Of a DNA stretch of 47,482 nucleotides, positions 19,890-40,909 are shown one piece after another. The DNA comes from Armatimonadota bacterium (GTDB lineage: Bacteria; Armatimonadota; Zipacnadia; Zipacnadales; UBA5352), in NCBI GenBank assembly GCA_046540615.1, contig JBKHFA010000002.1, forward strand, positions 1 to 47,482, read 5' to 3'. The position numbers and the translations under genes are program-made. The notes beneath the pieces are model-generated. The model did not search any database. It had not been told where the DNA came from and was given only the letters and a program-made list of their open reading frames with translations. How positions within the stretch are numbered: the first letter of the stretch is position 1; every line of letters begins with the position of its first letter.

Positions 19890-21110
19890 TTATCCGAAGC
19901 AGTAGATGGTGCCGCCTTCGGTGCCGATGACGAGTCGGCGCTGACCGATGGCGGGTGATGCGCTGATGGCTGAACCGGTGTTGAAACTCCACGCCGTCCG
20001 CCCGTTGCTCAGGCCCACCCGGTAGATATTGCCATCTGATGAGCCGAAGATTACGTGCGAGCCGTTGATCACGGGTGAGGAGTTGACGTCGCTGCGGGCC
20101 TGGGCGCTCCACTGCACGTTGCCGGTCGCTGCGCTCACGCGGAACGCGCGGTCGCTGCGCGAGGCGAAGATGACGGCGTCGCCCATGACGGCGGGCGCGG
20201 CGTAGATCGCGCCGGTGCGCGATTCTTCCCGCCTGTCCCAGAGAATCTTCGCGTCTGAGAGGCGCACCGCCCAGTAGCGGCCATCCATCGATCCGACGTA
20301 GACGGTGCCGGACGCGTAGGCCGGGGCGCCCGCGAAGTTGCCGCCGAGTTGCGCCGCGCGAACCTCCCGGCCGGTCTGCAGGTCGATCATGCGGAGCAAG
20401 CCGTCGCAGCCTGCTATCATGACAATGCCCGCGGCCTCGGTCGGGGTGCAATGTACCTGCGCATCGGCCTCGAAGCTCCAGATCTCGGCGCCGGTGCTGG
20501 TGCTCAGGCGGTAGAGATGATTGTCATACGAGCCGAAGAGCACCGAATTGCCCACGTGGATCGCCGAGGAGATTATCCTGTCGCCGGTCTCGAAGGTCCA
20601 TCGCTTCTTCCCGGTCGCAGCGTTGACGGCGTGGAATGTGCCGCCCTCGTCGCCCACGTAGACAGTACTGCCATGAAGAAGCGGGGCGGCGGAGATCGCG
20701 TTCCCTTCGGTGAGGTACTTCCACTTGAGCGATCCGCTGGCGAGATCGATCGCGAGCAGCGCTCCGGTCATCGTGCCGACGTACGCGCGGTTGCCGACGA
20801 TGGCGGCGCTGGATTCGACGGAGGAGCCGGTCTCGTAGGTCCACCTGACCGCGAGGTTGGGGCTGAGCGGTGAGTGTGCGACGCCGGTGTTCTGCGCCTT
20901 GCCGCGGAATGTCGGCCAGTCGCCGCCCGTCTCCGCGAAGGCGCAGGAGGAGAGAAGCAAGATAGCCACGGCGAGAATCGTGGCCCTTCGGCAACGAGCA
21001 TTCACGCCGTTCGTGGGGCAGGCATTCCTGTCTGCCGCCCTCGCCGCCGGCCGCTGCCTGACGGCATGTCGCTCGTCGCTCGTCGCCGATCTCTTCTCCA
21101 TCCCACTCAC
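19890..21110 (-). CDS. secreted PQQ-like beta-propeller repeat protein
   Basis: Hydrophobic leader ILAVAILLLSSCAFA, then DWPTFRGKAQNTG. Repeated G.vYVG...G.L.A.D..tG...W blades. ATGA overlap with the upstream permease gene supports the start at 21110. Confidence 0.8.
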   Translation of the reverse strand: MSGMEKRSATSDERHAVRQRPAARAADRNACPTNGVNARCRRATILAVAILLLSSCAFAETGGDWPTFRGKAQNTGVAHSPLSPNLAVRWTYETGSSVESSAAIVGNRAYVGTMTGALLAIDLASGSLKWKYLTEGNAISAAPLLHGSTVYVGDEGGTFHAVNAATGKKRWTFETGDRIISSAIHVGNSVLFGSYDNHLYRLSTSTGAEIWSFEADAQVHCTPTEAAGIVMIAGCDGLLRMIDLQTGREVRAAQLGGNFAGAPAYASGTVYVGSMDGRYWAVRLSDAKILWDRREESRTGAIYAAPAVMGDAVIFASRSDRAFRVSAATGNVQWSAQARSDVNSSPVINGSHVIFGSSDGNIYRVGLSNGRTAWSFNTGSAISASPAIGQRRLVIGTEGGTIYCFG

Positions 21111-24100
21111 TCCGTCCTCAATGCGTCGATCAGATCGCCGCGAACCGTCGCTCGGGCCCCGATTGCGCAGGCCGCGAGACCGACCGCCAGCACCGCCAGA
21201 AGCACCGCGACCAGCGCCCCCCAGTTCACGCTGGCCTGCGCGGAGGCCAGGTGCGGCGCCACCGAGATCAGCGCGGTGACTGTCCCGACAAGCATTCCGG
21301 CGATCAGAAGCCCTGCGTTTTCGACGAGCACCAGGCGCGTGAGGTTCGCCCGGGTGAAGCCCGTGGCGAGCATCAGCGCGAACTCCCCGCGGCGTTCGAA
21401 GGCGCTGCGGAGGATCACTGCGACGAGGCCGATCGTCCCCAGCAGCAGGCCCAGTCCGCCCAGCGCAAGGAACATGCTCAGGTAGGTGTTCTGCACCGTG
21501 ATGAAGCGGGTGAGCACCTCACGCGTCTCGCGCACCTCAAGCCCCATGTCTCCCAGCGCCGACCGCAACGCATCCGCGACCTCGTCCTCGCGCGCCTCCG
21601 GGGCGTCAATGAGGAAGTAACTTGGCCCCGCGATTTCCGGGTAGATCGCCCTGAGCGCATCGGCGTGGATGAGTATCTCGCTTTGAAAGATTGACCCACC
21701 GAGAGCGCCGACGAACTGCAGCGGCGGCCGATCGCCGCCTGCGTCATACACTTCACCGACCGCCGAATGAAGCTGCCACTGGAGGCTCGCGTTGTCAGTG
21801 ATGGCACCGACCGTGCGTGACGCCGAGTCTTCGCGAAGAAGCGTCCACGGGTTACCAGCGGCCTCCCCCGAGGTCGATGTGAAGGTGAAGCCGCCGCGTT
21901 CGATCATCTCGTCGGTGACGCCCAGCAGGCGGGGGAGGGAGGTCTGCGCGATGTTCAGGCATGAGATGTCCTCGCCCGGACTCCGCGGCAGGGAGATGAT
22001 CTCAACGCCATCCAGCGCCTCCTGCTCCTCGGAGAGGAAGCCAAGGTTGTCCCGGCCCTCCCTGGTGGCGGGATCGAAGCGCAGCGGGACCGATGAGGTC
22101 GCGATGAGCGCGAAGCCGCCGGTGCCCGACGAGCGGTCATGCACGTCGATCGCGGAGAAGTCTCGCGAGTTGGCCGCGACCGTGACGATCACGAAGGTCG
22201 CCGCCGCGATCAGCCCCAGGAGCAGCAGGCTGCGTCCACGCGCGGACGCAGCTGAGCGAAGCGCGAAGAGACGCTGCGACCGCGTGGCCCCGGCCCGATG
22301 CATCGCCCCTGTCAGCAGCAGATGGGCCCCCGTCAGCGCCGCCAGCAGCAATGCGCCGCCGATGGCGAAGAACGCTCCCTCCGCCGGGATCGCCTCAGTG
22401 ACGGTCGCGGCGAATATGCCGACGGCGGCGACCAGCAGCACCGGTGTCGCGATCGCGGTCCAGGGCCGACCCGTCGCGGGATCGGTCGCCGACGCACGCC
22501 AGCCTCGCAGCAGTTCCAGCACCGGTCTCCCGGAGAGCACCCGCGCGCCCCACCACGTCGCGAGCACGCCGACGACCAGTGCGGAGAACGCTCCGATGGC
22601 GACGCTCGCAGGCTCCACGTAGACGCCCAGCACCGGCGCGTCGCCGAGCGCGCCCTGCCAGCGCGTGGCGAGCGCGCCGATGATCGCGTGGGCGTAGCCG
22701 ATCCCGAGCGGCGTTCCGAGCAGCACGCCGACCAGCGACAGCGCCACGCCCTCGGCCGCGATCGCACGCCCGGCCTGCTTCGCTTTGAAGCCGGTGGCCA
22801 TCATGATGCCTGCCTGCGAGGCCCGTCGTTCTGCGGAAAGGCGCATCAGCGTGCCCGCCAGACCCGTGCCCGCGAGCACGAGGAAGAAGCTCATCCCGAG
22901 GAAAAGCTGGCCGAAGTCCGAGGTGCCCTTGCTTGCGGCCAGCGCCTGCTCGCGGACGCGCATGAAGCGGAAGCCCGCGTCCTCGGGCTCAAGCTCTTCG
23001 CGCAGCGCTTGCTCATACTCGTCCGCGTCAGCGCCATCAAGGCGCACTGACGTGATCCACGGTCCCTCGCCGTCCTCGCCCTGCCACATGCGCTGGAGGA
23101 GGGAACTGCTGACAAAGGCCTTCGGCGCCGCGCGGTAGCGCTCCCAGTATTCATCGTCGCGCTCGGTCACAAGCGACAGGTCCACGGGAAAGGGCGGGTC
23201 CCACTCGTCGATGTGCCCGGCGTCAGTGATTCCCTCGAAGTCCGGCACAAGGTCCGGCTCGGCGCCGAGGCCCTGCATCTCCGCGATGCCGGTCAGTGTC
23301 AACTCCGCCGAGCGGTCCTCGTAGCCGGACGGCGTGCTGACGCGCCAGGTGACGGCGAAGCGCTCGCCAACCTCCGCGTCGAGGTCCTGCGCGGCCCACG
23401 CGTTGAGGATCAGGCCGTCCACCGGGCCTGCTTGCCGCGACCGCAGGGGAAGTTTCTTCGACGACACGTCGGTGACGACTGCGTAGGCAATCTCCCGGGA
23501 CGGGTCGTCAGCGGCGGTGATCGTGTCTGCGAGGTAGACGGACGTCGGCGAGATGCCGCGTTTCGTCGCCGCCTCGATCGCTCCGACCTGCGCCTCGTTG
23601 AGCACCACTGCGTCGCTGAAGACCGACAGCCAGGCGCCGTGCCGACGCAGATAGAGTCCGTGGTCGTCGAGCGTCACCGCGCGGTTGATTCGTCCGTGCA
23701 GTTCCGCGCCGGCCTCCGCCCCGACCACGATCGTGTTCGCGCGTCCAGGCTCGCCAATCTGCTGCGCCAGCCACTCGCGGTCCACGATCACGTTGCGCGG
23801 CATCGCCGTGGAGGGGTCGAGGCGGAAGCCGCCGGGGCCGAGGTCGGGCAGGATATCCTGCACGGTCACGCGAAGCGTCGCCAGCGTCTCATCGCGCTCG
23901 CGGCGAGCGAAGAGCGTGTCCACCATCGCTTCGCCCGGGCGGGAGATGGTGACGAGCAGCGTGTCTCCCGCGTTGACACGGGCGGCAGTCGCGAGTGCTT
24001 CGTTGATGAGGGCCGAGCGTGGCTCAGGCGTATGCGTATCCGAGTCGGGGTAGAGGCTCAGGAGGTCATCGTCCGCTCCGATGACGGTGATACCCGCGAC

Positions 24101-24397
24101 GACTGCGTCGCCGCCCTCGGCGCGCGCAGAGCCCTCAGCCTGAATGAGCGTCGCGGCGGCGCCTCGGAGATCGGCATCGTGGCGAAGATCTGCGCGGAAG
24201 AAACGTGGGGCCGTGACTGCGTCGTGAATCTGACCGAGTCGCGCCAGCGCGGTGTGCCGGATCGAGCCTTCGATGGAGTCGCCGATCACCAGTGAGCCGA
24301 CGATCACCGCCGCCGCGATCGCCAGGCCGACCACCACCACCGCCCCCGTCCGGCGGTAATGCACCAGGCTGCGGAGGACCAACCGCGCGAGGGTCAT
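21107..24397 (-). CDS. large double-FtsX ABC transporter permease (MacB/LolC type VII-like)
   Basis: 1096 aa. N-terminal TM (GAVVVVGLAIAAAVIVGSLVIGDS), then a ~450-aa periplasmic domain and a TM bundle. This is followed by a second periplasmic domain and a second C-terminal FtsX-type bundle (..FITVQNTYLSMFLALGGLGLLLGTIGL..). 4-nt overlap with the ATPase gene. Confidence 0.8.
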   Translation of the reverse strand: MTLARLVLRSLVHYRRTGAVVVVGLAIAAAVIVGSLVIGDSIEGSIRHTALARLGQIHDAVTAPRFFRADLRHDADLRGAAATLIQAEGSARAEGGDAVVAGITVIGADDDLLSLYPDSDTHTPEPRSALINEALATAARVNAGDTLLVTISRPGEAMVDTLFARRERDETLATLRVTVQDILPDLGPGGFRLDPSTAMPRNVIVDREWLAQQIGEPGRANTIVVGAEAGAELHGRINRAVTLDDHGLYLRRHGAWLSVFSDAVVLNEAQVGAIEAATKRGISPTSVYLADTITAADDPSREIAYAVVTDVSSKKLPLRSRQAGPVDGLILNAWAAQDLDAEVGERFAVTWRVSTPSGYEDRSAELTLTGIAEMQGLGAEPDLVPDFEGITDAGHIDEWDPPFPVDLSLVTERDDEYWERYRAAPKAFVSSSLLQRMWQGEDGEGPWITSVRLDGADADEYEQALREELEPEDAGFRFMRVREQALAASKGTSDFGQLFLGMSFFLVLAGTGLAGTLMRLSAERRASQAGIMMATGFKAKQAGRAIAAEGVALSLVGVLLGTPLGIGYAHAIIGALATRWQGALGDAPVLGVYVEPASVAIGAFSALVVGVLATWWGARVLSGRPVLELLRGWRASATDPATGRPWTAIATPVLLVAAVGIFAATVTEAIPAEGAFFAIGGALLLAALTGAHLLLTGAMHRAGATRSQRLFALRSAASARGRSLLLLGLIAAATFVIVTVAANSRDFSAIDVHDRSSGTGGFALIATSSVPLRFDPATREGRDNLGFLSEEQEALDGVEIISLPRSPGEDISCLNIAQTSLPRLLGVTDEMIERGGFTFTSTSGEAAGNPWTLLREDSASRTVGAITDNASLQWQLHSAVGEVYDAGGDRPPLQFVGALGGSIFQSEILIHADALRAIYPEIAGPSYFLIDAPEAREDEVADALRSALGDMGLEVRETREVLTRFITVQNTYLSMFLALGGLGLLLGTIGLVAVILRSAFERRGEFALMLATGFTRANLTRLVLVENAGLLIAGMLVGTVTALISVAPHLASAQASVNWGALVAVLLAVLAVGLAACAIGARATVRGDLIDALRTE

Positions 24398-25089
24398 GCC
24401 CGGTCAGGCGCCCCTTCCCACGGCTCCAGCGTGCCCTCAGTCAGCAGCAGCCCGCGGCCCAGCAACTCCGCCTGACGGGTGTTGTGCGTGACCATCAGCA
24501 CCGTGACGCCGTCCTCGGCGAGTTCGCGCAGAAGCGCCACGAGTCGGTCGCCACTCTCACGGTCGAGGTTGCCCGTCGGCTCATCGCAAAGCAGCAGCGC
24601 AGGCTCATTGATGAGCGCCCTTGCCGCCGCCACGCGCTGGCGCTCGCCGCCCGACAGCCGTGCGGGGAATGCGTCCGCGCGGTCGGCGACACCCACGCGC
24701 TGCAGTAACTCCGACGCGCGGCCCTCGGCGCCTTCGCCGGCGCCGGCGGCCAGCGTCGGCAGCAGCACATTCTCCGTCGCGGTCAGTTGCGGGAGGAGGT
24801 GGTGGTCTTGAAAAATGAAGCCGACGTCGCCGGCGCGGTAGGCCGCAAGCGCCTCGCCGCCGAGGGATGTCACGTCCGTGTCTCCGAGGTGGACCGCGCC
24901 CGACGTGGGCCGGTCGAGCGAGCCGATGATGTTCAGCAGCGTGCTTTTGCCCGAGCCTGACGGCCCGAGGATCGCGACCGTCTCGCCCGGCTGCGCTGTC
25001 AGCGACAGCCCGTCGAGCACACGCTTCGCGCCGCAGGGCGTGTCATACTCCTTCGTCAGGTCCTCCACTGTCAGCGTCCTCGTGCTCAT
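24394..25089 (-). CDS. ABC transporter ATP-binding protein (MacB/LolD-like)
   Basis: Walker A GPSGSGKST, signature LSGGERQRV, Walker B LLLCDEPTGNLD. Start is ATG 25089 (MSTRTLTVEDL) or ATG 25116. Either overlaps the tail of the upstream gene. Confidence 0.9.
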   Translation of the reverse strand: MSTRTLTVEDLTKEYDTPCGAKRVLDGLSLTAQPGETVAILGPSGSGKSTLLNIIGSLDRPTSGAVHLGDTDVTSLGGEALAAYRAGDVGFIFQDHHLLPQLTATENVLLPTLAAGAGEGAEGRASELLQRVGVADRADAFPARLSGGERQRVAAARALINEPALLLCDEPTGNLDRESGDRLVALLRELAEDGVTVLMVTHNTRQAELLGRGLLLTEGTLEPWEGAPDRA

Positions 25090-26668
25090 GCTCCTCAGCC
25101 GCCTCCTCCGCCTCATCCCGCAACACGATCGCGCCGGTCGGGCATGCCTCCGCGCACTCCACTGCCGCCCGCCGCAGTCCCTCCGCGATCGTTGCGCCGA
25201 GCGGGACCGCTGTCCGCACGTCGAAGCCCCGTCCGACGAACGTCAGTCCGAGTTCGTCCTCGTACTGCCGGGCAATCTCCACGCAGAGACCGCACGCGAC
25301 GCATTTCCCCGGCTCGAAGATGATCGCCGGGTGGGTGGCATCGCGGCGGAAGCGCCGGCGGTCTCCCGGATACACTCGCGTGCCGGCGTCATACTGCTCA
25401 CTGACCGCTCGCAGACGACAGTCACCGAGCGCGCGGCAGTCGCAATGCATGCATCGCAGACCCTCGCGCACGGCCTCCTCGTCGTTGAAGCCCGCGGTCT
25501 CGCCGCCGGACGGCTGCAGTCGCTCGTGCTCGCTGGCGTCGGCGGCCATCCGGGCCGCCTCATCAGGCCGCAGGCGCCCGAGATTCACGTTGAAGGGCCG
25601 CCGCTCGGCCGCGATCTGCTCGTCGCGAAGATACTGATCGATCGCCAGCGCCGCCTCGCGAGCTCCCGCGATTGCCCGCACCGCCAGCTTCGTTGGACTC
25701 TGCGCCGATCCCGCCACGAAGACGCCATCCAGCGGGCTCTCGTGACTCTGCTGATCGGCCTCCAGTCCGCGTCGCGCGTAAGCGAGCCCAAGCGCCTGCG
25801 CCGACTCTTCGTCGGTCTCGCCGATCGCCAGCAGCACCGCGTCGAACTCATCGCGCAACTCGTCCAGCGTCAGATCGATTCCCAGCCGCGTCTCGGCGCG
25901 CAGTTCCACGCCGAGGTCCAGGATCCTCGCTGCCTCCGCCTGCGTGACCTCCGGTGTGAGGTCCGTCGCGGCGATCTCCCGCAGGCCGCCACCCGGCGCG
26001 TCGCGCTCGTCGATCAGCGTCACCGCATGCCCGATCAGCCGCAGGTAGTACGTCGCGCTCAGGCCCGCAGGGCCTGCGCCAACGACGGCGACGCGCTTTC
26101 CGGTCGCCGATCCGGACTCAGGCCGCGTCGCTTTTCTGTCGGGGTCGCGATCGCCCACCCACCGCTTGAGGAGGCGGATTGCCACCGGCTCGTCGTGCGC
26201 TCCCCGTCGGCAGGTGGCCTCGCACGGAGCAGGGCAGATGCGTCCGAGGACAGCCGGCAGCGGGATGCGCGCGCGCACGGTCTCGACTGCTCCCGCGAGG
26301 TCGCCGGCGACGATCTGTCGGATCATCAGCGGAATGTTCATCCCCGCCGGACACGCAAGCTGGCAGGGACCGAGGCAGTCCCCGAGGTGATCCGAGAGGA
26401 GCAGCTCGAGCGCCATCCGCCGCGCCTCGCGGACCTCCGGGCACTCGCTCTCGACGACCATCCCGTCGCGAACCTTCGTCGCGCAGGATGGTCGGAGACG
26501 CTGGCCGCCGTCGATCCTGACCACGCACACCATGCACGAAGTCTGCGCGGGCAGACCCTCGCGATGGCACAGCGTGGGTATCTCCACGCCGATCTTCCTC
26601 CCGGCCTCGAGGATAGTCGCTTCCTCAGGCACCGTGACCGATTGTCCATCGATGGTGATCGTTGGCAT
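25043..26668 (-). CDS. 2Fe-2S / GltD-like FAD-NAD(P) oxidoreductase with C-terminal ferredoxin domain
   Basis: N-terminus MPTITIDGQSVTVPEEATILEAG...CHREGLPAQTSCMVCVV (NuoG/HydA-type 2Fe-2S). GltD small-subunit FeS region CLGPCQLACPAGMNIP...CPAPCEATCRRG. Dinucleotide fold VAVVGAGPAGLSA. C-terminal CMHCDCRALGDC, CVACGLCVEIA...CAEACPTGAI. Confidence 0.8.
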   Translation of the reverse strand: MPTITIDGQSVTVPEEATILEAGRKIGVEIPTLCHREGLPAQTSCMVCVVRIDGGQRLRPSCATKVRDGMVVESECPEVREARRMALELLLSDHLGDCLGPCQLACPAGMNIPLMIRQIVAGDLAGAVETVRARIPLPAVLGRICPAPCEATCRRGAHDEPVAIRLLKRWVGDRDPDRKATRPESGSATGKRVAVVGAGPAGLSATYYLRLIGHAVTLIDERDAPGGGLREIAATDLTPEVTQAEAARILDLGVELRAETRLGIDLTLDELRDEFDAVLLAIGETDEESAQALGLAYARRGLEADQQSHESPLDGVFVAGSAQSPTKLAVRAIAGAREAALAIDQYLRDEQIAAERRPFNVNLGRLRPDEAARMAADASEHERLQPSGGETAGFNDEEAVREGLRCMHCDCRALGDCRLRAVSEQYDAGTRVYPGDRRRFRRDATHPAIIFEPGKCVACGLCVEIARQYEDELGLTFVGRGFDVRTAVPLGATIAEGLRRAAVECAEACPTGAIVLRDEAEEAAEEHEHEDADSGGPDEGV

Positions 26669-26753: not shown

Positions 26754-26814
26754 TTTTCCCTCTTCACTTTTCCCTCTTCACTTTTCCCTCTTCACTTTTC
26801 CCTCTTCACTTCAC
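26754..26814. repeat. perfect 14-nt x4 tandem repeat (TTTTCCCTCTTCAC; GTGAAGAGGGAAAA on the coding strand) plus a partial unit
   Basis: Units at 26754-67, 26768-81, 26782-95 and 26796-809, then TTCAC. The array spans the stop codon (26792-94) of the NuoEF-like gene and most of the spacer before the next gene. Confidence 0.9.
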
Positions 26815-29179
26815 TTCGTACATCCACCGCATCCACGGGACACACATTCACACACGTCCCGCACTTCACGCAAAGCTCCTGATCGATCTCATGTACCTCG
26901 TGCGGACGCATCGGGATCGCATCCGCCGGGCATGCCTGCGAGCAGAGGGTGCAGCCGATGCAGTCGTCGTTGATCTCATAGCGGATCAGCGCTTTACACA
27001 CGCCCGCGGGGCAGCGCCCCTCGATGTGCGCTTCGTACTCGTCGCGGAAATACTCGAGCGTGGTCAGGACTGGATTCGGCGCGGTCCCCCCGAGGGCGCA
27101 AAGGCTCGTGTCCCGCACCATCGCACCGAGGTCTCTCAGCGTGTCGAGGTCGCCCGCTTCTCCCTCGCCGGTGGCGATGCGTTCGAGAATCTCCAGCATC
27201 CGCCTCGTTCCGATGCGGCAGGGCGTACATTTGCCGCATGACTCGCGCTGGGTGAACTCAAGGAAGTAACGCGCCACGTCCACCATGCAGTCGCTGTCGT
27301 CCAGCACCACGAAGCCGCCCGAGCCCATGATCGCCCCCAGGCTCGCCAGCGCCTCGTAGTCCACCGGCGTGTCGGCGAGACGCTCGGGGATACACCCGCC
27401 CGAGGGTCCGCCGATCTGCACCGCCTTGAACTCGCGGCCGTCGGCGACCCCGCCGCCGATCTCCTCCACGATCTCGCGGATCGTGATTCCCATCGGCACC
27501 TCGATCAACCCGCCGCGCTCGACCTTCCCCGCCAGCGCGAAGACCTTCGTCCCCCTGCTCTGCTCCGTGCCCATCGCGGCGAATTCCCCGGCGCCTTCGC
27601 GGATGATCCACGGGACGACCGCCCACGTCTCCACGTTGTTGATCAGCGTGGGCTTGCTCCACAGTCCGCTCTCCGCGGGGTAGGGCGGCCGGAGGCGCGG
27701 GGTTCCGCGATCGCCCTCGATCGAGGCGATCAGTGCGGATTCCTCGCCGCAGACGAATGCGCCTGCTCCCTCCCGGATTCCGAGGTGCAGGTCGAAGCCG
27801 CTGCCGAAAATATCCGCACCAAGGTAGCCCCGCCTCCTGCACTCCGCGATCGCATTCCACATGCGCTGCACGGCCAGCGGGTACTCAGCGCGGATGTAAA
27901 GCAGTCCGTCGTGGATTCCGGCCGCATACGCGCCGATGATCATCCCCTCAAGCACGCGGAAGGGGTAACTCTCAAGGATCATCCGGTCCATGAACGCGCC
28001 CGGATCCCCCTCATCGCCGTTGCAGATGATGAACTTCGGCTCGCCCTCTGCGTTCCTGACGGCTTCCCACTTGACCCCGGTGGGAAAGCCCGCCCCGCCT
28101 CGGCCGCGCAGGCCGGATTGCTTGATCGCCTCGATGACATCCTCCGGCTTCATTGTCAGCACGCGTTCGAGGGCCGCAAAGCCGCCGCCCTCGATGTACT
28201 CGTCAATGTCAAAGGGGTCGAGGCAGCCGCCAAACTCCGTCGCGACGTGGACCTGTCGGCCGAGGAAGTCGCACACCGGGGCATCGCGAACATCCAGTGC
28301 GTAACGCGTCACCGGCTTCCACGCGCGGTCGTCGAGCATGCGGTCAAGGGCCGACGTCACCGCGACCCGGACCCGCCTGAACCCCTTCGGCTCAAAGTGC
28401 CGCCTCACGATCCCTTCGGCGTCATCCGGCTGAACCTTCGCGTAGATATGCGGCTCCTCGCCCGGCAGCACAATCTCCACGAGAGGCGTCCGATGGCACA
28501 TCCCCACGCACCCGACCGGCTTAACCACCGCCGGAGCGCCGAGTTCGCGCACCGCCCGCTCGAGGGCCACGCGAACGTCCATGCTCCCGCCCGCAATGCA
28601 GCATGAGCCGATGCCGATGCGGATCTCCGCCAACCCGTCGGCGTGCCCCTCGACGGACTTCGGCTGAGGCGCGAGCAGGCCGCGGTCCTTGAGTGCGAGG
28701 AAGTCCTCGATCGCGTCGGAGACATTGTCCGTGGTGAGATGCCCGTAGGTCACCCCGTCGATCTGCATGACCGGCGCGAGGGTGCAGCACCCAAGGCACG
28801 CGACCTTCTCGATGGTGAACCTGCCGTCGGGGTCGGTGTCATCGTCAGCGGGAATCTGCAGGTGGCGCCGCGCCGCGTCGCTTACGCGATCGGCCCCCTT
28901 CACGTGGCATGCGGTGCCGTGGCAGACGCGGATGAGGTGCTCGCCGACCGGACGATGCCGGAACTGCGTGTAAAAGGTGGAGACGCCCTCGATCTGCGCG
29001 GGCGTGATCTCCGTCAACTCACAGACGCGCCTGAGCGCCTCGGGAGGCAGGTAGCGGTAGTGCGACTGCAGGCGCTGCAGGATCGGGATGACCGCCTCAC
29101 GCCTGCTGCCGGTCTCCTCCACCACGCGGTCCACGCAGGTCAGGTCGACCGCATCAGCCTGCTCGCGCGCGTCCCTCAC
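26792..29179 (-). CDS. NuoE-NuoF fusion (HydC+HydB / HymB-like NADH-binding FMN FeS flavoprotein)
   Basis: NuoE-type 2Fe-2S (CHGTACHVKGA...VACLGCCTLAPVMQIDG). Second thioredoxin-like FeS region (IGIGSCCIAGGS...VGCVGMCHRTPLVEI). NuoF FMN/NADH blocks (GLRGRGGAGFPTGVKW, ICNGDEGDPGAF), the N3 cluster motif ESCGKCTPCR, and two C-terminal 4Fe-4S motifs (CIGCTLCSQACP, CVKCGTCVNVCP). GTG start; exact start uncertain. Confidence 0.85.
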   Translation of the reverse strand: MRDAREQADAVDLTCVDRVVEETGSRREAVIPILQRLQSHYRYLPPEALRRVCELTEITPAQIEGVSTFYTQFRHRPVGEHLIRVCHGTACHVKGADRVSDAARRHLQIPADDDTDPDGRFTIEKVACLGCCTLAPVMQIDGVTYGHLTTDNVSDAIEDFLALKDRGLLAPQPKSVEGHADGLAEIRIGIGSCCIAGGSMDVRVALERAVRELGAPAVVKPVGCVGMCHRTPLVEIVLPGEEPHIYAKVQPDDAEGIVRRHFEPKGFRRVRVAVTSALDRMLDDRAWKPVTRYALDVRDAPVCDFLGRQVHVATEFGGCLDPFDIDEYIEGGGFAALERVLTMKPEDVIEAIKQSGLRGRGGAGFPTGVKWEAVRNAEGEPKFIICNGDEGDPGAFMDRMILESYPFRVLEGMIIGAYAAGIHDGLLYIRAEYPLAVQRMWNAIAECRRRGYLGADIFGSGFDLHLGIREGAGAFVCGEESALIASIEGDRGTPRLRPPYPAESGLWSKPTLINNVETWAVVPWIIREGAGEFAAMGTEQSRGTKVFALAGKVERGGLIEVPMGITIREIVEEIGGGVADGREFKAVQIGGPSGGCIPERLADTPVDYEALASLGAIMGSGGFVVLDDSDCMVDVARYFLEFTQRESCGKCTPCRIGTRRMLEILERIATGEGEAGDLDTLRDLGAMVRDTSLCALGGTAPNPVLTTLEYFRDEYEAHIEGRCPAGVCKALIRYEINDDCIGCTLCSQACPADAIPMRPHEVHEIDQELCVKCGTCVNVCPVDAVDVRSEVKREK

Positions 29180-29187
29180 CTCGGTGC

Positions 29188-31422
29188 TCAGAAGTCCACG
29201 TCCTTCGGCTCAGCGTCTTCTTCCTCGTCGGCGTCCTCGTCTTCGCGCCCCGCAGGTGTTTTTGCCGGCTCCTCCGGCCGATCGGCGGCGCTGCCGTCCG
29301 TCTCGGCCGGCGTCGTATCAAAGGGGCTACCCTCGGCGGGATCCTCGTCACCTTCATCATCGGTGGGCGCCTGCTGCTGCTCATCCGCCGGCTGAGATTC
29401 CGGTTCGCCGATGCGGTAGAGCGTAGTCTCCCCGCGGATGAACACGCTGCCATCGACGAAAGCAGGCGTGGCATCCGCCGGTTCGCCGAGCGACACGCTG
29501 CCGAGATGCTCAAACTCGCTGCCGGTCGCGAAGAAGTGCATGACCCCTTCGCGGTTCATCAGCCAGATGCGATCGCCGACGATGGTGGGGGAGGAGTAGT
29601 ACATCCCGTCCGGCAACTCCTCCTCCCAGACCGGCTCGCCGTCGGCCAGCGCGAAGCAACTCATCATCCCGAAGCTCGCCACCACGTAGACGTGTGTCCC
29701 GTCGCTGACCGGACTGGCGGTGTCCGGCATTGTGCCGGGAGCCTCCCACTGCACATGCGTCTCGGTCACATCGCCTTCGCCGTCGGGGCGGATCGCAACG
29801 AGGTCGGTCCCGTCATTGCATGCGATGACAAGGCCGCCGGCGTAGATGGGCGACGGTCCGACGTCGCCGAAGAGGACATCGGCCCGCCAGATCTCCTCGC
29901 CATCTTCGGGATCATACGCGATCACCCACGGGTCCGCGGCTGTGATGATCTGCGGCTCGCCGCGGTGCTCGATCACGATCGGCGTAGACCACGAGTTCGG
30001 CGTCTCACGCTCGGTCTCCCACACGCGCGAGCCGTCCTCGACGTTCAGGGCCACGATGCTCGACAGGTCGTCATCCGCCTCGCCCTGATCGAGCAGTACG
30101 ATCAACATGTCTTCGTACACCGTCAGCGAGGCCGCGTGACCGTACATGTTCTCCAGCGGTCCGGTCGCGCGCGTCCACAGCTCTTCTCCGTCGAAGTCGA
30201 ACGCCGCGATGTCGCCGTTGGCGAAGCTGGCGAAGACGCGCTCGCCATCGGTCGCCATCGTGGGCGCCGCGTAGCCGGTGTCAGCTTCAACATCCGGCGG
30301 CTCATCTTCTGCGCTCAGTGCGTTCACAACCGTCCGCATCCAGACCATCACGCCGCTCTCCGCGTCGTAGGCGTAGACCTGGCGCGTGTCCTCATTTGCA
30401 CCGGTGAGGAAGACGCGGTCGTTCCACACGAGCGGCGAGGACTTGCCCTGAAGCGTGATCGGGCTGCTCCAGGCGACATCCTCTCCGCTCTCGACGTCCC
30501 AGTCGGTCAGATAGTCGCCCTCGGGCGCGACCCCCGAGCCGTGAGGGCCGCGAAAGCGCGGCCAGTTGCGCTCGTACTCAAGCTCGGCGTCGGTCAGTTC
30601 CGCCGGCGCGCCGCCTGCTCCGGGAGGCCCGGGTGGTCCCGCTGGGCCGGGCGGTCCCTGCTCACCGGCAGGTCCTGCCGGCCCGGCAGGGCCGCGCGCA
30701 CCCGCTGGTCCCGGAGGCCCGGGAGCTCCGGGCTGTCCCGGTGCTCCCGCCTGTCCCTGCTCGCCCTGCGGCCCCGGAGGCCCCTGAGGACCGATCAGCG
30801 CCTGCCGCTCGGCCTCCGCCTCCGCCGCGAGGTCGGCCGCCTCCGCCGCCTCGACGTACTCCGCGACCGCGTCATGCCTCGCGAGCACCGCGAGAGTAAT
30901 CAGCAGTCCGCCAAGCACCAGCGCCATCACCAGCACAGATCGGCGCGCGAGCGCCGTCGCGAGGATCGGCTCCTCGACCGCGTCCGGGTTGGGCGTCGGT
31001 CCGGGAGAGGCGTAGACCGCCGCGTAGCGCACCGACAGCAGCAGCACCGCGATGCCGCCCAGCAGCATCAATGCGCCCTGCACCGCGAAGCGTCGCGTCC
31101 GGAAGTACTGCTCGCGCAACTGCTGGTCCAGCGAGCGGATCGTCTGCAGCGTTTCAATATCCGGTGCCCCGGGCTGACGATTCAACTCCGCTCGGAGCTG
31201 CTCGATCTGCGCGGGGGCGGTCGGATCGGCGCTGTGCGCCCGGATCAGATTCGCCATCATCAGCGCGAACACCGCGGCCACGAACACAGCGGACACGATG
31301 GCCAGCCGCGTCGCCAGCAGATAACGCCAGCCGTGACGCCTGCTGTCAGCCGATTCCGCGGCAGGCACGCTCTGACGGTCCACCGTCTGCTCTGAGTTGT
31401 TCCTGACCGTGTCCTCGCTCAT
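29188..31422 (-). CDS. membrane-anchored collagen-like-repeat / PQQ-like beta-propeller protein
   Basis: 744 aa. Three hydrophobic helices in aa 33-180, an Ala/Glu coil, then about 20 uninterrupted GXY triplets. This is followed by [11 protein letters not shown] and a beta-propeller with blades ([25 protein letters not shown] etc.). It ends in a 72-aa acidic tail. Confidence 0.8.
30613..30792 (-). repeat. collagen-like GXY triplet repeat coding region (aa ~211-270 of the 744-aa protein)
   Basis: [60 protein letters not shown] read directly from the translation. The DNA is a GGN-CCN-rich periodic tract. Confidence 0.85.
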
Positions 31423-32723
31423 TCTTTATTCCGAGTCGGGTACACCGACTTCCCGGCCTTCCGTGCCGTCTCGATGGGGCAGGAGGCGTAACACCGCCCG
31501 CATGACACGCAGCGCGCCGGGTCAACCTCGTAGTGCTCGCGTGTGCGCCGGAGGGAGACGGCGATGAGCTGCCAGGCCACGACCAGTCCGATGAACCCGC
31601 CCAGCACTGTGCTCCCCGTGTTGAACTGTCGCTTAATTTCGGCGGCTTCGCGGTAGAGCCCTCCCGTCGGCAGCCCCAGTTCATAGAACGCTTCGGACTG
31701 CTCCGTGGTGCCCTCAACGATGCCCTGCTCCTCAACAAAAACGCGCGCGGCGGTCTGCACCGTCTGATTCATCCCCGCAAGGTAGTCGCTGCCCATCTGC
31801 CCGAGCCATGCGCCGAGGCCGATCATGACCGGGAATGACAGAATGATCGCAGCCAACGTCCAGCGCCCGGTGGTCGGCGGCTTCGAGCGATCCTCGCTGG
31901 TCGGCGGCCGGATCGCGTTGTAAGGACAGGCATCCGCGCAGAGATGACAGTTGATGCACTGATCCCCACCGAGCTGCACGTGCCAGGCCGACAGCGGCGC
32001 CGTCACCCGGAAGAGCGCCGCCAGCGGGCAGAGATAGCGGCAGTAAGGCCGGCCGATGAAGACACCGATCAGCAGCAGGATGCCGCCTGCGATCAAGACG
32101 TGCGTAGGTCCGCCGAGCCTGAAGAACGCGACGTAAGGATCGTAGCGGCAGATCAAAAAACCGCTGTCCGTCCAGGCAAAGAGCGCGGCCACGCCGAGAT
32201 ACACGAAGGGAATGATCCCCAGCGGCCGCTCCAGCCACTCGGGGACGCGAAGCGGCTTGATCAGCGTCATCTCCTGCACCGCGCCCAGCGGACAGACGGC
32301 CGCGCAGAAGACGCGCCCGAATGCAAGCGCAACCAGCAGCGGCAGCAGGAAGAACAATCCCACCGTCACCGGGAGCGTGTACTCAGCCGGTCCGATCGCC
32401 AGCGCGACGTTTTGAATTGCGCCGATCGCGCAGATGCAGCCCTCGCGGTAGAAGCCGAAGTAAAGCAATGCGAAGGCGACCAGCAGGAATATGTACGTAC
32501 GCTTTTTCACGCGCAATGAAAGCCATGCCGCCATCCCCAGCGTCGCCGCCAGCACCGCGACGTCGATCCACTCAAAGAGCGTGTCGCGCGGAGACGGCGT
32601 GCGCACCTCGGGGAAGCGGTAGTCGAAGCTGAACTCAGGCGGAGGAAAGCGCTCGGCGGCAAGCGCCACCACGGGCGCCAGCACCGCAATCACAAGCAGC
32701 AGCGGCAGCACGCGGCGAATCAT
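31419..32723 (-). CDS. NapH/MauN/NosH-like integral-membrane polyferredoxin
   Basis: Multiple TM helices with membrane-proximal CxxxCP motifs ([26 protein letters not shown]) plus CICAIGA. Two 4Fe-4S motifs ([28 protein letters not shown]) are separated by two further hydrophobic helices. ATGA overlaps occur at both ends. Confidence 0.75.
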
Positions 32724-33487
32724 ATCTGCGTTGTCCCCGGCTCGTTCGTCGACGTGTCCCCCTGACCGGGGGCGGGGAAGTCCGAATCCGGAGCGCCCTC
32801 AGAGGGCGACGCCTGATCGGGGCCGGCAGACTCTGGCGGCGATGCCGGCTCAGACGAGGGCTGCTGATATGCCCCATCGGTTGGACGAGACGCCGACTCG
32901 GCGCTCTCCTCTTCGTCATCCTCCTCCGCGAGCTTAATGCTGGGGAGCAGGTAGGGCTCATCCGCCGGCACGCGTACAAACGCGTCCGCCGGACACTGCG
33001 CGGCGATGGCGCACTCGTTGCAGTCAACGCAATAATTGTGACGTACCTGCATCACCAGTGAGCCGTTGCCGTATTGACGACAGCCCTCGACGCAGATCGC
33101 GCAACCTATGCACTTCGGCTCGTCGATCAGGTACTCGTAGTAAGGCTCCTCCACGAAGTTGCGTATGATCGCGTCGGTAGGGCAGCGCATGTTCTCCGCG
33201 GTCTCTTCGTCCCCGGGACGCACTTCGGCGAAGAATCCGAAGCAGAAGTCGCAGAAGCCGCAGATCTCCACGTCGTGCACACACCGCGCCGCCGAGGGTG
33301 TCAGAACGCAGGCGGTCGCGCAGTTGCCGCAGGCAATGCACTTCTCCGGATCGATCTGCCAGACGAGGTCGTCGCGTTCGCCTTTCGCGGCCACCGCGCC
33401 GACGCCGACGCCCAGTCCAAGAGCGCCGACCGCCCTCGCGACGGCCCGGAGAAAGCTTCTGCGGTCCATGCCGCGTTCGTCAGTCAT
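32720..33487 (-). CDS. TAT-exported NapG/MauM/NosG-like poly-[4Fe-4S] ferredoxin with low-complexity acidic tail
   Basis: Twin-arginine signal MDRRSFLRAVARAVGALGLGVGVGAVA. Four cluster motifs: CIACGNCATAC, CGFCDFC...CPTDAI, CIGCAICVEGC, CVDCNECAIAAQCPADAF. 69-aa Ser/Pro/Glu/Asp tail. Confidence 0.8.
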   Translation of the reverse strand: MTDERGMDRRSFLRAVARAVGALGLGVGVGAVAAKGERDDLVWQIDPEKCIACGNCATACVLTPSAARCVHDVEICGFCDFCFGFFAEVRPGDEETAENMRCPTDAIIRNFVEEPYYEYLIDEPKCIGCAICVEGCRQYGNGSLVMQVRHNYCVDCNECAIAAQCPADAFVRVPADEPYLLPSIKLAEEDDEEESAESASRPTDGAYQQPSSEPASPPESAGPDQASPSEGAPDSDFPAPGQGDTSTNEPGTTQI

Positions 33488-33732
33488 CAGCTACTCAGCG
33501 GCTCCTCACCGGTCGCCGGATAGGTCTCAGTGTCCGACTTCGGCCGTCTCTGCAGACGAACAATCCGTGCTTCAGATTCCTCGCAATCATCAAGCTCGGG
33601 ACATCCGCGGCAGGCGCCGTTGGTCCAGCACGGCTTCCCCGAGCCGAACGCGAGCCAGCCGGTGCCGCCGGCGAGCAACACTCCCGCGATCCCGCGCGCG
33701 GCGGATTTCAGAAAGTCGCGTCGGTCGCTCAT
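33487..33732 (-). CDS. 81-aa TAT-signal, Cys-rich small protein (novel; hidden inside the 178-aa track ORF)
   Basis: MSDRRDFLKSAARGIAGVLLAGGTGWLAFGSGKPCWTNGACRGCPELDDCEESE... has a twin-arginine motif plus an h-region, then C-x5-C-x2-C-x5-C. ATG 33732 overlaps the upstream TGA (ATGA). Its own TGA overlaps the next ATG (TGATG). The upstream 97 codons of the track ORF are Arg-rich and overlap the NHL gene. Confidence 0.6.
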   Translation of the reverse strand: MSDRRDFLKSAARGIAGVLLAGGTGWLAFGSGKPCWTNGACRGCPELDDCEESEARIVRLQRRPKSDTETYPATGEEPLSS

Positions 33733-34712
33733 CTGTCTCCGGCCTCCTGCGCCGTCTCTTCGTAGATGCGAACGATGTCTCGGTGGGGATCGAGCACCGC
33801 GACGCGCCCGGATGGATCGATCGCGAGGTCGATCCCTACGCTGCTCCTCGCGAGCTTCCCGGGCGGCACGACCACCGAGAGCAATTCTCCGTCCGTGGAA
33901 TACACCTTCACTCGGGGAAGGCCCTTTTCTGAGGTGACCACGCGCCCGTCGGGCAGCACGGCGATGTCCGTCGGATTGCAGCAGCCGCCGAAGCCCTCGA
34001 CGTCGTTGCCGACTCGCCTCCACGAGTTCACGAGCGCGCCGTCCGTCCGGGAGTGTATCTGCACCGCAAGCCGTCCCGGGTTGGACAGCCAGAGGTTGCC
34101 GTCAGGACCGGTCGCCACGTCAAGGTGGGGGCTGGGGATGGAAAGCGCGGGGATTCCCCGCTCCGGATCCATCCCGGCAAACTCGCCGAGCAGGTTCCCG
34201 GTGCCGTCATAACGCAGGATCCTCCGGCTGCCCGCGTCTGCGACGAATCGGTCGTCAGGCCACGCCGCGATCGACGTGATCCAGGTGTTCTCCCCCTCGG
34301 GCGCCAGCGTCATGAGCAGTTGCCCCGACTGATCGTACACCTCCACGCTCTGTCGCGTTCCCACGAGGATCGTGCCTTCGGGATCGACAGCCACGCAGGT
34401 CGGCTCCCCGCCGACCGGGAGTTCCCACTCAACCTGCCCGTCGGCCGTCATCTTCCGCACGGCCTCATCGCCGGCGACGTAGAGCGCGCCGGGAGCGTCG
34501 AACGCGATGGCCGTGGCCTCCGCGAAGCCCGGATCGATCTCACCCACCGTCTCCCACGTGAGCAACTGCTCAGGCACGTGGCTGGCTTCCGCCTGCGACG
34601 CGACATTCTCAGCTTTGACCGCCACCGTCTGCTCGATGATCTCCTGCCGCTGGGGACAGCCGCTGAGAGCAGTCGCCAGCAACGCGATCGCCACGAGTGC
34701 GCGTGACGTCAT
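33729..34712 (-). CDS. NHL-repeat six-bladed beta-propeller lipoprotein
   Basis: Lipobox MTSRALVAIALLATALSGC. Six repeats of the NHL type (ATAIAFDAPGALYVAGD, PTCVAVDPEGTILVG, ITSIAAWPDDRFVADAGSRRILRYD, LDVATGPDGNLWLSNPG, PTDIAVLPDGRVVTSEKG..VKVYS, IDLAIDPSGRVAVLDPHRDIVRIYE). Confidence 0.75.
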   Translation of the reverse strand: MTSRALVAIALLATALSGCPQRQEIIEQTVAVKAENVASQAEASHVPEQLLTWETVGEIDPGFAEATAIAFDAPGALYVAGDEAVRKMTADGQVEWELPVGGEPTCVAVDPEGTILVGTRQSVEVYDQSGQLLMTLAPEGENTWITSIAAWPDDRFVADAGSRRILRYDGTGNLLGEFAGMDPERGIPALSIPSPHLDVATGPDGNLWLSNPGRLAVQIHSRTDGALVNSWRRVGNDVEGFGGCCNPTDIAVLPDGRVVTSEKGLPRVKVYSTDGELLSVVVPPGKLARSSVGIDLAIDPSGRVAVLDPHRDIVRIYEETAQEAGDR

Positions 34713-36367
34713 GGGTTTCTCACATCCACGCAGATCATCGTCTCGCGGTCGCGAATGACCAGCTTGCCGTCCGCAAACGCCATCGGCGCCCAGGCATCCG
34801 GGCCGGGAAGCACCTTCGCGCGGGCCATCTCGTTGTACCCGGAGGTTGTCGCCTGCGCCATCACGAGCGTCCCGTCATCGCTGAGCACGTAGATTTTTCC
34901 GTCGGCCATGAGGAAGGGGCCGATCCCGAAGCGCGCGGTGTGTCCGCTCTCCCAGACGCGCTTGCCCTCGAGGTTCAGGCAGACAAGCTGACGGTCCATG
35001 CTCACGCCGAAGAGGTGATTCTGATGGAAGATCGGCGTATGCTGATGGGAGCCGAAGATGTTCTGCGGGATCTTCCACACCTGCGCGGGGGTGCCGCCCT
35101 TCACCGACAGCAGCATGCTGCCCGCGCCGTAGCCGCCGGTGAGGAAGATACGCTCGTTGCCGACGGGCACCGGCGTCGGGACGTTCGCGGTGTTCACGGT
35201 CCAGTTGGGATACTTGAAGACGATCGAGCCGTCGTTCGCGTCGATGCCGACGACGCCGCCGGAAGCCGGATAGACGTAGACTTCCCGCCCGCCGATCTGC
35301 GCGGGCATGATGGAGGCGTGGGTCATCTGCCAGCCGTCCGGGTTCGGCGCCTCCCACTCGACGGTGCCTGAGGCGACATCCACCGCGATCATGAGCGACT
35401 TGCCACCGGGCGCGAGGATGGCCCTGCCGTTGTCGATGATCGGACACTGCCCGGCGTACCAACTTGGGATCTTCGTGTTGTATGTCTGCTTGAGATCCAC
35501 CTGCCAGACCACGTCGCCGCTGTCGGCGCGCGCGCAGGTTACATGGCCCATCGGACCGAGGGCAACGACGTAGCCGCCGGCGACGGCGGGGACGGTGCGG
35601 GAGATTCCGTGGTTATCCTTGATCTGCACCGCGTACGACTGCCGCCAGATCTCACTACCATCCGCAAGCGACAGGCAGCGCAGGGTGTCCTCGCGGGCCT
35701 TTTGATCGTAGTCGAGCACGTACACGCGGCCGTTGGCGATCGCCGCGCCTGCGTGGCCCGGTCCGAGCATGTCCTTCGACCAGACCTTGCGCGGGCCGTC
35801 GCTCGGCCAGCTTGAGGCGAGACCGGACGCCTCCTGCGCGATGTTGTCGTAGCCTGAGCCACGGAAGTTCGGCCACGATCCTCCTCCACCGCCTGAAGGT
35901 GGCGCCGAGGCGGATTGCGCGCTTTCGCCGCCTGTCTGAGCGGGAGTGGAGGGCTGTGAGGGTGGGGCCGCCTGTGATGGCTGACCGTCAGCGGTCTCGG
36001 GTGATTCTGCGTCGCCCTCGGAGGCATCGGTCGCGTTCTCTTCGACTGCAGGCGGATCGTCGTTGGAAAGCTCTTCGCTGTCGGGCCTGTCGGGAAGCAC
36101 TTCGCCGGGGCGCGGCTCAACGTCAACCGGGCGGGAGTCCCCGAGCACCCACATCCCGAGCAGGAATGCGCCGATCAGCGCCACGAGGATCGGAATCGCG
36201 ATCGCGAGAATGCGCTTCGTGCGGTCACTGTGCCGAGGAGCGGGCGCCGGCCCCTCCGGTTCCTCATCGGAAGATGGCGGATCGGGCTGATTCACGGTCG
36301 AGGGCACGCGGTCGTTGGGGAGTCGATCGCCTGTGCTCTTGCCGCCGCTCTCCATGCTTCCCCTCAC
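34709..36367 (-). CDS. membrane-anchored PQQ-like beta-propeller protein (first gene of the operon)
   Basis: Single TM (ILAIAIPILVALIGAFLLGMWVL), an ~87-aa acidic/Pro-rich linker, then SWPNFRGSGYDN and propeller blades. C-terminal WAPMAFADGKLVIRDRETMICVDV. Start is GTG 36367, or ATG 36355 preceded by GAGGGG. Confidence 0.8.
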   Translation of the reverse strand: MRGSMESGGKSTGDRLPNDRVPSTVNQPDPPSSDEEPEGPAPAPRHSDRTKRILAIAIPILVALIGAFLLGMWVLGDSRPVDVEPRPGEVLPDRPDSEELSNDDPPAVEENATDASEGDAESPETADGQPSQAAPPSQPSTPAQTGGESAQSASAPPSGGGGGSWPNFRGSGYDNIAQEASGLASSWPSDGPRKVWSKDMLGPGHAGAAIANGRVYVLDYDQKAREDTLRCLSLADGSEIWRQSYAVQIKDNHGISRTVPAVAGGYVVALGPMGHVTCARADSGDVVWQVDLKQTYNTKIPSWYAGQCPIIDNGRAILAPGGKSLMIAVDVASGTVEWEAPNPDGWQMTHASIMPAQIGGREVYVYPASGGVVGIDANDGSIVFKYPNWTVNTANVPTPVPVGNERIFLTGGYGAGSMLLSVKGGTPAQVWKIPQNIFGSHQHTPIFHQNHLFGVSMDRQLVCLNLEGKRVWESGHTARFGIGPFLMADGKIYVLSDDGTLVMAQATTSGYNEMARAKVLPGPDAWAPMAFADGKLVIRDRETMICVDVRNP

Positions 36368-40827: not shown

Positions 40828-40909
40828 TCTGACGCACCGCCCTTCGATGCCGGAGTTCGGGGATGGCGGCGAGGGAGCACGTGTTCCGACACCTGGAGGA
40901 CGATGCCCG

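Follow-up and report, generated by a model that had tools for sequence, protein, structure and literature searches.

A NapGH-like protein triad at the centre of a conserved operon that may join a cytoplasmic NAD(P)H module to periplasmic propellers

Three overlapping minus-strand genes at 31419-33732 of a 47,482-nucleotide stretch from an Armatimonadota bacterium (assembly GCA_046540615.1, contig JBKHFA010000002.1, positions 1 to 47,482; the whole stretch is hereafter called the window) encode a membrane polyferredoxin and two proteins with twin-arginine translocation (Tat) signals. They are given here in the order of transcription, with lengths in amino acid residues (aa):

33487..33732, minus strand: TAT81, an open reading frame (ORF) of 81 aa with a Tat N-terminus and a Cys4 motif
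32720..33487, minus strand: Fd255, an ORF of 255 aa, a Tat ferredoxin with four Cys motifs
31419..32723, minus strand: NapH434, an ORF of 434 aa, a NapH-like membrane polyferredoxin

A sequence-only reading of the window had proposed three overlap-coupled ORFs at this place, and we find them there, joined by the start/stop junctions TGATG (TAT81/Fd255) and ATGA (Fd255/NapH434). Judging by their homologues, which for NapH434 reach an E-value of 3e-275, the three ORFs are genes and not chance ORFs. We class the triad as a variant of the NapGH kind that sits within a larger undescribed system. We consider it somewhat probable that a conserved iron-sulfur (Fe-S) conduit free of heme leads from an NAD(P)H module in the cytoplasm to propellers in the periplasm, with the triad as its relay in the membrane and periplasm.

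The two CxxxCP motifs and two [4Fe-4S] motifs that the sequence-only reading had seen in NapH434 are all present, and every one of their cysteines is invariant in an alignment of 70 homologues. The CX3CP motifs, C140-x3-C144-P145 and C228-x3-C232-P233, are invariant throughout, and the Fe-S motifs, of the form CxxCxxCxxxCP, occupy residues 256-267 and 405-416. In the same alignment 15 cysteines are invariant: eight in the Fe-S motifs, four in the CX3CP motifs, and C96, C98 and C192; the last three and D195 are not only invariant but also particular to this family. No histidine is conserved; NapH434 therefore lacks bis-histidine heme ligands, which argues against heme b. The protein also has an N-terminal signal-like helix, a conserved ERFPPPEF stretch and a G-C-x-C motif.

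The Pfam matches of NapH434 are PF12801 and generic Fer4 domains. Its scores against curated NCBIfam models all fall below the cut-offs: 45.2 bits for the NapH/MauN model TIGR02163 (cut-off 213.05), 37.3 bits for the NapH equivalog NF007013 (cut-off 234) and 33.7 bits for the NosR model (cut-off 1000). Profile comparison with hhalign aligned residues 117-285 only to E. coli NapH (probability 96.3, E 1.5e-9), and residues 125-268 to a profile of 12 named NapH proteins (probability 96.0), which was built from a search with E. coli NapH that yielded gammaproteobacterial NapH only. Two helices and the two CX3CP motifs make up the shared core together with the first Fe-S motif; the second Fe-S motif is unaligned. 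Within this core, C192-R-Y-D-P of the NapH434 family occupies the position of W-E-W-I-N-P in true NapH. On these comparisons NapH434 is a distant homologue of the NapH core and, by the curated thresholds, not NapH. Two distant PF12801 paralogues are present elsewhere in the same genome (C53:14319-14933 and C22:21828-22418), scoring 47 and 30.7 bits against the family profile.

An AlphaFold2 model of NapH434 was built from the 70-sequence alignment (predicted local distance difference test, pLDDT, 78.7; predicted template modelling score, pTM, 0.77). It begins with a signal-like helix at residues 2-20, followed by a low-confidence stretch containing ERFPPPEF, and contains seven predicted transmembrane (TM) helices at 48-72, 75-92, 119-135, 171-184, 207-223, 285-310 and 353-390. 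The last two lie between the Fe-S motifs and are modelled with block pLDDT values of 86-97; Kyte-Doolittle hydropathy peaks between the motifs at 290-308 and 373-391. Both methods thus support the earlier suggestion of two extra hydrophobic helices between the ferredoxin motifs. The resulting TM hairpin insert measures 130 aa and has an outside loop of about 45 aa (residues 311-352). It had also been suggested that this arrangement departs from classical NapH, and the hairpin is in fact absent from the alignable part of true NapH. A contiguous C-terminal 2x[4Fe-4S] domain as in NapH/MauN is not seen in NapH434, where two TM helices and an outside loop stand between the motifs.

A di-cluster ferredoxin domain draws cysteines from both of its motifs, and both Fe-S motifs of NapH434 should therefore lie on one side of the membrane. 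With the N-terminus outside, the modelled helices would put the two CX3CP and the two Fe-S motifs on the cytoplasmic side, and C96/C98, C192 and the 311-352 loop on the periplasmic side. The loop charges agree with this predicted topology, the loops placed inside being rich in lysine and arginine and the 311-352 loop being net acidic. These charge counts were the only use made of a hydropathy script that split the helices badly. The two-helix hairpin is most plausibly an insert that splits one cytoplasmic 2x[4Fe-4S] domain, to which it would add a small loop on the periplasmic side. Fold searches found no solved structure like the model: at E <= 0.001 Foldseek had no match in the PDB, and a wide VIA-align search gave generic helical-hairpin matches to residues 278-394 only (best Z 6.5).

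Fd255 answers to its earlier description as a Tat-signal protein with four cluster motifs. The twin arginine is invariant in 42/42 aligned sequences, as are 16 cysteines in the four motifs, and C69 is nearly invariant; the motifs would hold 4 x [4Fe-4S]. Pfam and NCBIfam returned generic Fer4 matches only; of the 15 NCBIfam families that Fd255 matches at E <= 0.01, none is the NapG/MauM model TIGR00397. Distant homology to E. coli NapG was detected with hhalign (probability 96.8, E 2.9e-10), and with the corresponding result for NapH434 the description of the two proteins as a NapG/NapH-like pair holds at the superfamily level. The acidic Ser/Pro tail noticed in Fd255 (about residues 187-255, 69 aa) does exist; it is confined to the lineage of the window, is not conserved, and is not a feature of the module, since the homologues are mostly 184-200 aa long. 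The AlphaFold2 model of Fd255 is weak (pLDDT 68). A fold search with this model gave no match at E <= 0.001, and its best rows, not significant, were polyferredoxin subunits of tungsten enzymes.

The third protein, TAT81, has a twin-arginine N-terminus (SDRRDFLK), followed by a Gly-rich hydrophobic stretch and then by C-x5-C-x2-C-x5-C. It passes the NCBIfam Tat-signal model TIGR01409 (18.6 bits, cut-off 16.7). No Pfam families were found in it, and its Atlas neighbours are clusters annotated 'hypothetical protein'. In 33 aligned homologues the four cysteines are invariant and the twin arginine nearly so. Related loci were collected in a scan of species-representative genomes that gave at least 600 matching stretches, 595 of them confirmed; synteny was compared in the best 80 loci. 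Here a pattern search (twin-arginine, hydrophobic stretch, C-x(3-10)-C-x2-C-x(4-8)-C) recognised a TAT81-type ORF just upstream of the ferredoxin gene in 55 of the 65 loci with room for one. The pattern was more sensitive than tblastn with TAT81, which gave matches in two loci only. In three loci (L014, L045 and L077) the ferredoxin carries the Cys4 motif as an in-frame N-terminal fusion. The idea of a dedicated small Tat protein, put forward from the window alone, is thus borne out across related loci.

Both TAT81 and Fd255 combine a twin arginine with a hydrophobic stretch, and TatC is encoded in the same genome (177.1 bits, cut-off 132.7); on these features of Tat substrates, export of both proteins is predicted. 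The Cys motif of TAT81 begins within a few residues of the hydrophobic stretch, and its Cys site would lie at the membrane surface if the signal is uncleaved.

The sequence-only reading regarded the triad as an orphan, self-contained unit, and on this point our results part from it: the three genes are the middle of a translationally coupled operon whose neighbours are conserved in related loci. The gene order is PQQ552, NHL327, TAT81, Fd255, NapH434, PQQ744, NuoEF795, GltD541, ABC240, FtsX1096, all co-oriented. The genes around the triad are as follows (PQQ, pyrroloquinoline quinone; ABC, ATP-binding cassette):

34709..36367, minus strand: PQQ552, an N-terminally anchored BamB/PQQ_2-type propeller
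33729..34712, minus strand: NHL327, an NHL propeller with a lipoprotein-like N-terminus (LSGC)
29188..31422, minus strand: PQQ744, 744 aa, a BamB/PQQ_2-type propeller anchored by three TM segments, with a collagen-like linker
26792..29179, minus strand: NuoEF795, a flavoprotein fusing NuoE-like and NuoF-like parts, with a 2x[4Fe-4S] domain at its C-terminus (BfuC + BfuB type)
25043..26668, minus strand: GltD541, a short BfuA-type protein whose GltD-like FAD/NAD(P)H domain is accompanied by a [2Fe-2S] domain and, at the C-terminus, an Fe-S domain
24394..25116, minus strand: ABC240, an ABC ATPase coupled to the redox operon
21107..24397, minus strand: FtsX1096, a large double-FtsX permease coupled to the redox operon

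Start/stop overlaps run unbroken from the upstream propeller gene PQQ552 to the downstream propeller gene PQQ744, with ATGA at both outer junctions of the triad (NHL327/TAT81 and NapH434/PQQ744). The triad is not a bounded unit, because the same kind of overlap runs on into the genes on both sides.

Conservation of the neighbourhood was counted in loci with enough flanking DNA only, for matches on the same strand with at least 33% identity. Neighbours of the NapH-like gene were found as follows:

Fd255, upstream: 65/65 loci
PQQ744: 61/64 loci
NHL327: 56/61 loci
PQQ552: 47/54 loci
NuoEF795: 52/58 loci
GltD541: 45/50 loci

Some of the misses are matches slightly under the identity threshold. ABC240 and FtsX1096 are each present in 20/39 loci of 15 kb or more. 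This ABC/FtsX pair lies upstream of the cluster in Planctomycetota (L018, L020, L027) and downstream in Armatimonadota (L011, L012, L075), its association with the redox cluster being retained despite the shifted position. The best 80 loci come from about ten phyla, including Armatimonadota, many orders of Planctomycetota, Verrucomicrobiota and Victivallales, as well as Bacteroidales, Desulfobacteraceae, Poribacteria and Aegiribacteria, and one (L046) belongs to the cultured Novipirellula herctigrandis CA13, in which the genes for the membrane and periplasmic parts are present. Within the phylum of the window, the NapH434 family is present in 33/201 sampled genomes (28/169 of high quality), in a single copy each and with a patchy distribution across taxonomic families. 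In two genomes of this phylum (G196 and G053) the homologue of the 434-aa gene has one in-frame TAG, which may reflect misassembly, a pseudogene or recoding.

Relatives of NapH434 in the representative library number 8034 at E <= 0.001, of which 621 remain at E <= 1e-30. Among the 150 best, ten are 973-1136 aa long and are fusions of the NapH-like part with the downstream propeller (among them P0122, P0123, P0130 and P0132). Eight representatives were scanned for domains: all four long ones (990-1136 aa) have a C-terminal PQQ_2 propeller, and the other four (539-646 aa) have Fer4 domains only, one with an IS200 transposase domain. In P0231 (646 aa) an IS200-like transposase domain follows the NapH-like part and is probably gene-calling read-through or an insertion. 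In 10/10 fusions the NapH-like part is followed by three hydrophobic segments ahead of the propeller; the C-terminus of NapH and the propeller therefore lie on opposite sides of the membrane, which supports the predicted topology independently of the model. Together, the Cys4-ferredoxin and NapH-propeller fusions imply a physical association of the parts.

NuoEF795 and GltD541 point to the cytoplasmic end of the system. The best solved relatives of NuoEF795 are NfnB 9n5u_B (724.6 bits), 8oh5_B and 9bov_B, and those of GltD541 are 9bov_A (326.3 bits), NfnA 9n5u_A and 8oh5_C, matched mainly over residues 3-290. By their domains and solved relatives the two proteins belong to the Nfn-Bfu/Stn class; bifurcation is predicted at most. 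The Nfn-Bfu class of electron-bifurcating enzymes has been described (PMC9304861; this paper and PMC5449189, PMC5928378 and PMC8238504 are cited throughout from excerpts). The likeness to Nfn-Bfu and StnABC lies in these structural relatives, and there are three differences: the BfuB- and BfuC-like parts are fused in NuoEF795, the BfuA-like GltD541 is short (541 aa vs 963-1178 aa), and the operon couples the genes to a module in the membrane and periplasm, an arrangement not described for the class in the excerpt of PMC9304861.

On the periplasmic side, the motif G-C244-C245-N-P of NHL327 is conserved at 90% or more among 62 homologues from syntenic loci. Its adjacent cysteines 244-245, encoded at window positions 33978-33983 (minus strand), could be a redox-active or metal-binding site. 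Conserved residues of PQQ552 are C231, C278, C308, C463, C546, H253 and H350, and the conserved cysteines and histidines of the two propellers are candidate end points of an electron path. Sequence searches of solved structures with NHL327 and PQQ552 gave generic or designed propellers and BamB only. The propellers score below the cut-offs of the PQQ alcohol-dehydrogenase model TIGR03075 (27.8 bits, cut-off 480) and of TIGR03074 (15.1 bits, cut-off 832.65). In PQQ744, a collagen-like G-X-Y run (Pfam Collagen, residues 211-269; window 30595-30816, minus strand) joins the membrane part to the propeller. This linker appears to be lineage-specific, tblastn matches elsewhere skipping about residues 180-280.

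A divergent cluster on the plus strand (36618-42334) encodes a ferredoxin, a B12/radical S-adenosylmethionine (radical-SAM) enzyme, a squalene-hopene-cyclase-like (SHC-like) protein and a further propeller. Such divergent genes stand alongside the redox operon in several phyla, with Fd300 in 7/39, the radical-SAM gene in 9/39 and the SHC-like gene in 4/39 loci of at least 15 kb.

Several described systems resemble parts of this operon. The quinol dehydrogenase NapGH of E. coli and Wolinella succinogenes (PMC5449189, PMC5928378) likewise pairs a Tat-exported four-motif ferredoxin with a polytopic protein bearing two CX3CP motifs and cytoplasmic [4Fe-4S] motifs. It differs in sequence, only about residues 117-285 of NapH434 being alignable and the scores lying far under the curated cut-offs, and in architecture: NapH434 adds the signal-like helix, the ERFPPPEF stretch, extra N-terminal helices and the G-C-x-C motif, has CRYDP in place of the WEWINP of NapH, and carries the 130-aa inter-motif TM hairpin. 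It also differs in its partners, since the present system has a third subunit, the Cys4 Tat protein TAT81, and is associated with a Bfu-type NAD(P)H module and propellers instead of NapAB/NapC. The four-helix membrane module with its two CX3CP motifs recurs in NosR/NirI, RdhC (PceC) and the flavinylated 'NapH-like systems', as does, in concept, a modular transmembrane electron path (PMC5928378, PMC8238504); NapH-like proteins have been described as modular transmembrane electron-transfer units (PMC8238504). Unlike in NosR and RdhC, no FMN-binding domain was detected: no FMN_bind family is among the Pfam and NCBIfam matches of NapH434 or its neighbours (FMN, flavin mononucleotide; an ApbE gene was not looked for), and a polyferredoxin takes the place of the flavin domain as periplasmic carrier. 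In delta proteobacterium MLMS-1, a polytopic polyferredoxin that Sec and Tat insert jointly is a NapH-NapG fusion, uniting a NapH-like membrane part and a NapG-like, Tat-dependent four-cluster part in one unit (PMC5449189). In the present system these are two separate genes, each Tat protein has its own signal, and the fusions are of other kinds, joining the Cys4 protein to the ferredoxin and the NapH-like protein to the propeller.

The genes and motifs of the conduit, their conservation, their synteny and their fusions are observed directly in the loci compared, and they suggest the following route. NuoEF795 and GltD541 would act as a cytoplasmic flavo-iron-sulfur module of the Nfn-Bfu/Stn type that oxidises NAD(P)H. 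Electrons would then pass to the cytoplasmic di-cluster ferredoxin domain of NapH434, the inserted hairpin keeping its halves on the same side, and would cross the membrane through the NapH-type core, with the two CX3CP pairs towards the cytoplasm and C96, C98, C192 and D195 towards the periplasm. Outside, they would enter the Tat-exported chain, through TAT81, which probably supplies a membrane-proximal extra metal or Fe-S site, and then through the four clusters of Fd255. The path would end at the tethered propellers, NHL327 with its adjacent cysteines and the two BamB/PQQ-like propellers. As to the cofactors at the extra cysteines, the outward direction of the electrons and the independence from quinones, these are steps that we infer.

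One alternative is an ordinary quinol dehydrogenase of the NapGH, NosGH or MauMN type serving a nitrate, nitrous-oxide or methylamine enzyme encoded in an unassembled part of the genome. The detectable homology to E. coli NapH and NapG fits this explanation, as does a genome that is only 83.8% complete. Against it, the NapH/MauN, NapH equivalog and NosR scores are all far under their cut-offs, and in the 83.8%-complete genome NapA has no match and none of the seven matches to TIGR02163 reaches the cut-off. NosZ models reach a C-terminal cupredoxin-like piece on contig C24 only (57.8 and 46.6 bits vs 625), a weak negative because no control genome passed the cut-off either; a search with the NosZ propeller family PF18764 found no match in this genome, nor in the control genomes, and is thus uninformative. 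No association of NapH434 with nap, nos or mau genes was found, mau genes not having been searched for in the genome. The neighbours detected in the 80 loci are propellers and the Bfu-type module; nap and nos genes are not among the recurring neighbours screened there, where no direct search for nap, nos or mau was made. This synteny is a stronger argument against a Nap/Nos partnership than the genome-wide negatives. The view of the sequence-only reading that the pair is not a Nap/Nos/Mau component therefore agrees with the model scores and the NapA search, and the ordinary quinol dehydrogenase is largely refuted, with hardly any probability left to it. Nearly as improbable is a quite different role for the 81-aa ORF, as a Cys-rich precursor peptide for the nearby B12-radical-SAM enzyme or as a mere Tat-anchoring leader. 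TAT81 is indeed small and Cys-rich, and the B12/radical-SAM gene lies on the opposite strand 3.8 kb from it and recurs in 9/39 long loci. The ORF nevertheless belongs to the redox operon in 55/65 loci, whereas most loci lack the radical-SAM gene. In three loci TAT81 forms an in-frame fusion with the ferredoxin, and its twin-arginine motif and four cysteines are conserved across phyla.

Several observations weigh against an outward Fe-S conduit from the NAD(P)H module to the propellers. The NuoEF gene is non-adjacent in 6/58 loci, the TAT81 pattern recognised no Cys4 ORF in 10/65 loci, and the propellers match no enzyme family in Pfam or NCBIfam. As to expression, no RNA run was listed among the sequencing runs searched for the stretch; the DNA runs that contain it are microbial-mat and hypersaline-lake metagenomes. 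For NosR, only about 8 Fe per molecule have been reported, and the CX3CP motifs are without an assigned cofactor (PMC5928378); an Fe-S role for the seven extra cysteines of NapH434 is therefore speculative. Finally, Nfn-Bfu enzymes are reversible (PMC9304861), which speaks against a fixed outward direction and for an inward flow, in which the propellers or a periplasmic partner would oxidise a substrate and Fd255, TAT81 and NapH434 would pass the electrons to the Bfu-type module for reduction of NAD(P)+ or ferredoxin. The synteny and fusion evidence is compatible with either direction, and NapH-like proteins adjoin periplasmic oxidases such as ExaA as well as reductases (PMC8238504). The propellers, however, lack the signatures of quinoprotein dehydrogenases in the TIGR03075 and TIGR03074 comparisons, no known catalytic cofactor family was detected in them by Pfam, NCBIfam or solved-structure searches, and inward movement of electrons would oppose the membrane potential. 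We regard inward flow as unlikely. A thiol-disulfide relay resembling DsbD, in which the CX3CP pairs, C96/C98/C192 and the adjacent cysteines of NHL327 swap disulfides while the Fe-S clusters convert one-electron to two-electron transfer, is a decidedly more doubtful proposal. It draws on the invariance of the seven non-ferredoxin cysteines of NapH434, the conserved G-C-C-N-P of NHL327, the five conserved cysteines of PQQ552 and the option of disulfide formation by CX3CP motifs left open in PMC5928378. The 16 invariant cysteines of Fd255 in four cluster motifs and the Tat Cys4 protein favour one-electron transfer outside, and no thioredoxin-fold protein was seen in the conserved gene set.

The preferred conduit also has a bolder form, which we put forward tentatively and would not ourselves expect to hold in full. 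Here the NapH434 family would be a complete heme- and quinone-independent Fe-S wire, with a CX3CP cluster near the cytoplasmic face, a C96/C98/C192/D195 cluster near the outer face and a bridging cluster in TAT81 leading to Fd255. With a bifurcating Bfu module as its source and the membrane potential as an aid, the wire would supply periplasmic propeller enzymes with electrons of very low potential, one of these enzymes having an adjacent-Cys site for an undescribed reduction chemistry.

A literature search found no published description of this gene cluster; the supplements of PMC8238504 and PMC9304861, which might list such clusters, lay outside that search. In PMC11406978 the terms PQQ, NapH, polyferredoxin and propeller are all absent. 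How electrons cross the membrane in heme-free proteins of the NapH/NosR type is still unsettled, and the NapH434 family offers a clean test case, with a defined cytoplasmic donor module, extra invariant cysteines at the outer face and a small Tat subunit of its own. Many anaerobic and mat- or sediment-dwelling bacteria carry this widespread system, which points to a whole periplasmic redox process without an assigned substrate. If the cytoplasmic module bifurcates, the operon would tie flavin- and Fe-S-based bifurcation directly to periplasmic chemistry.

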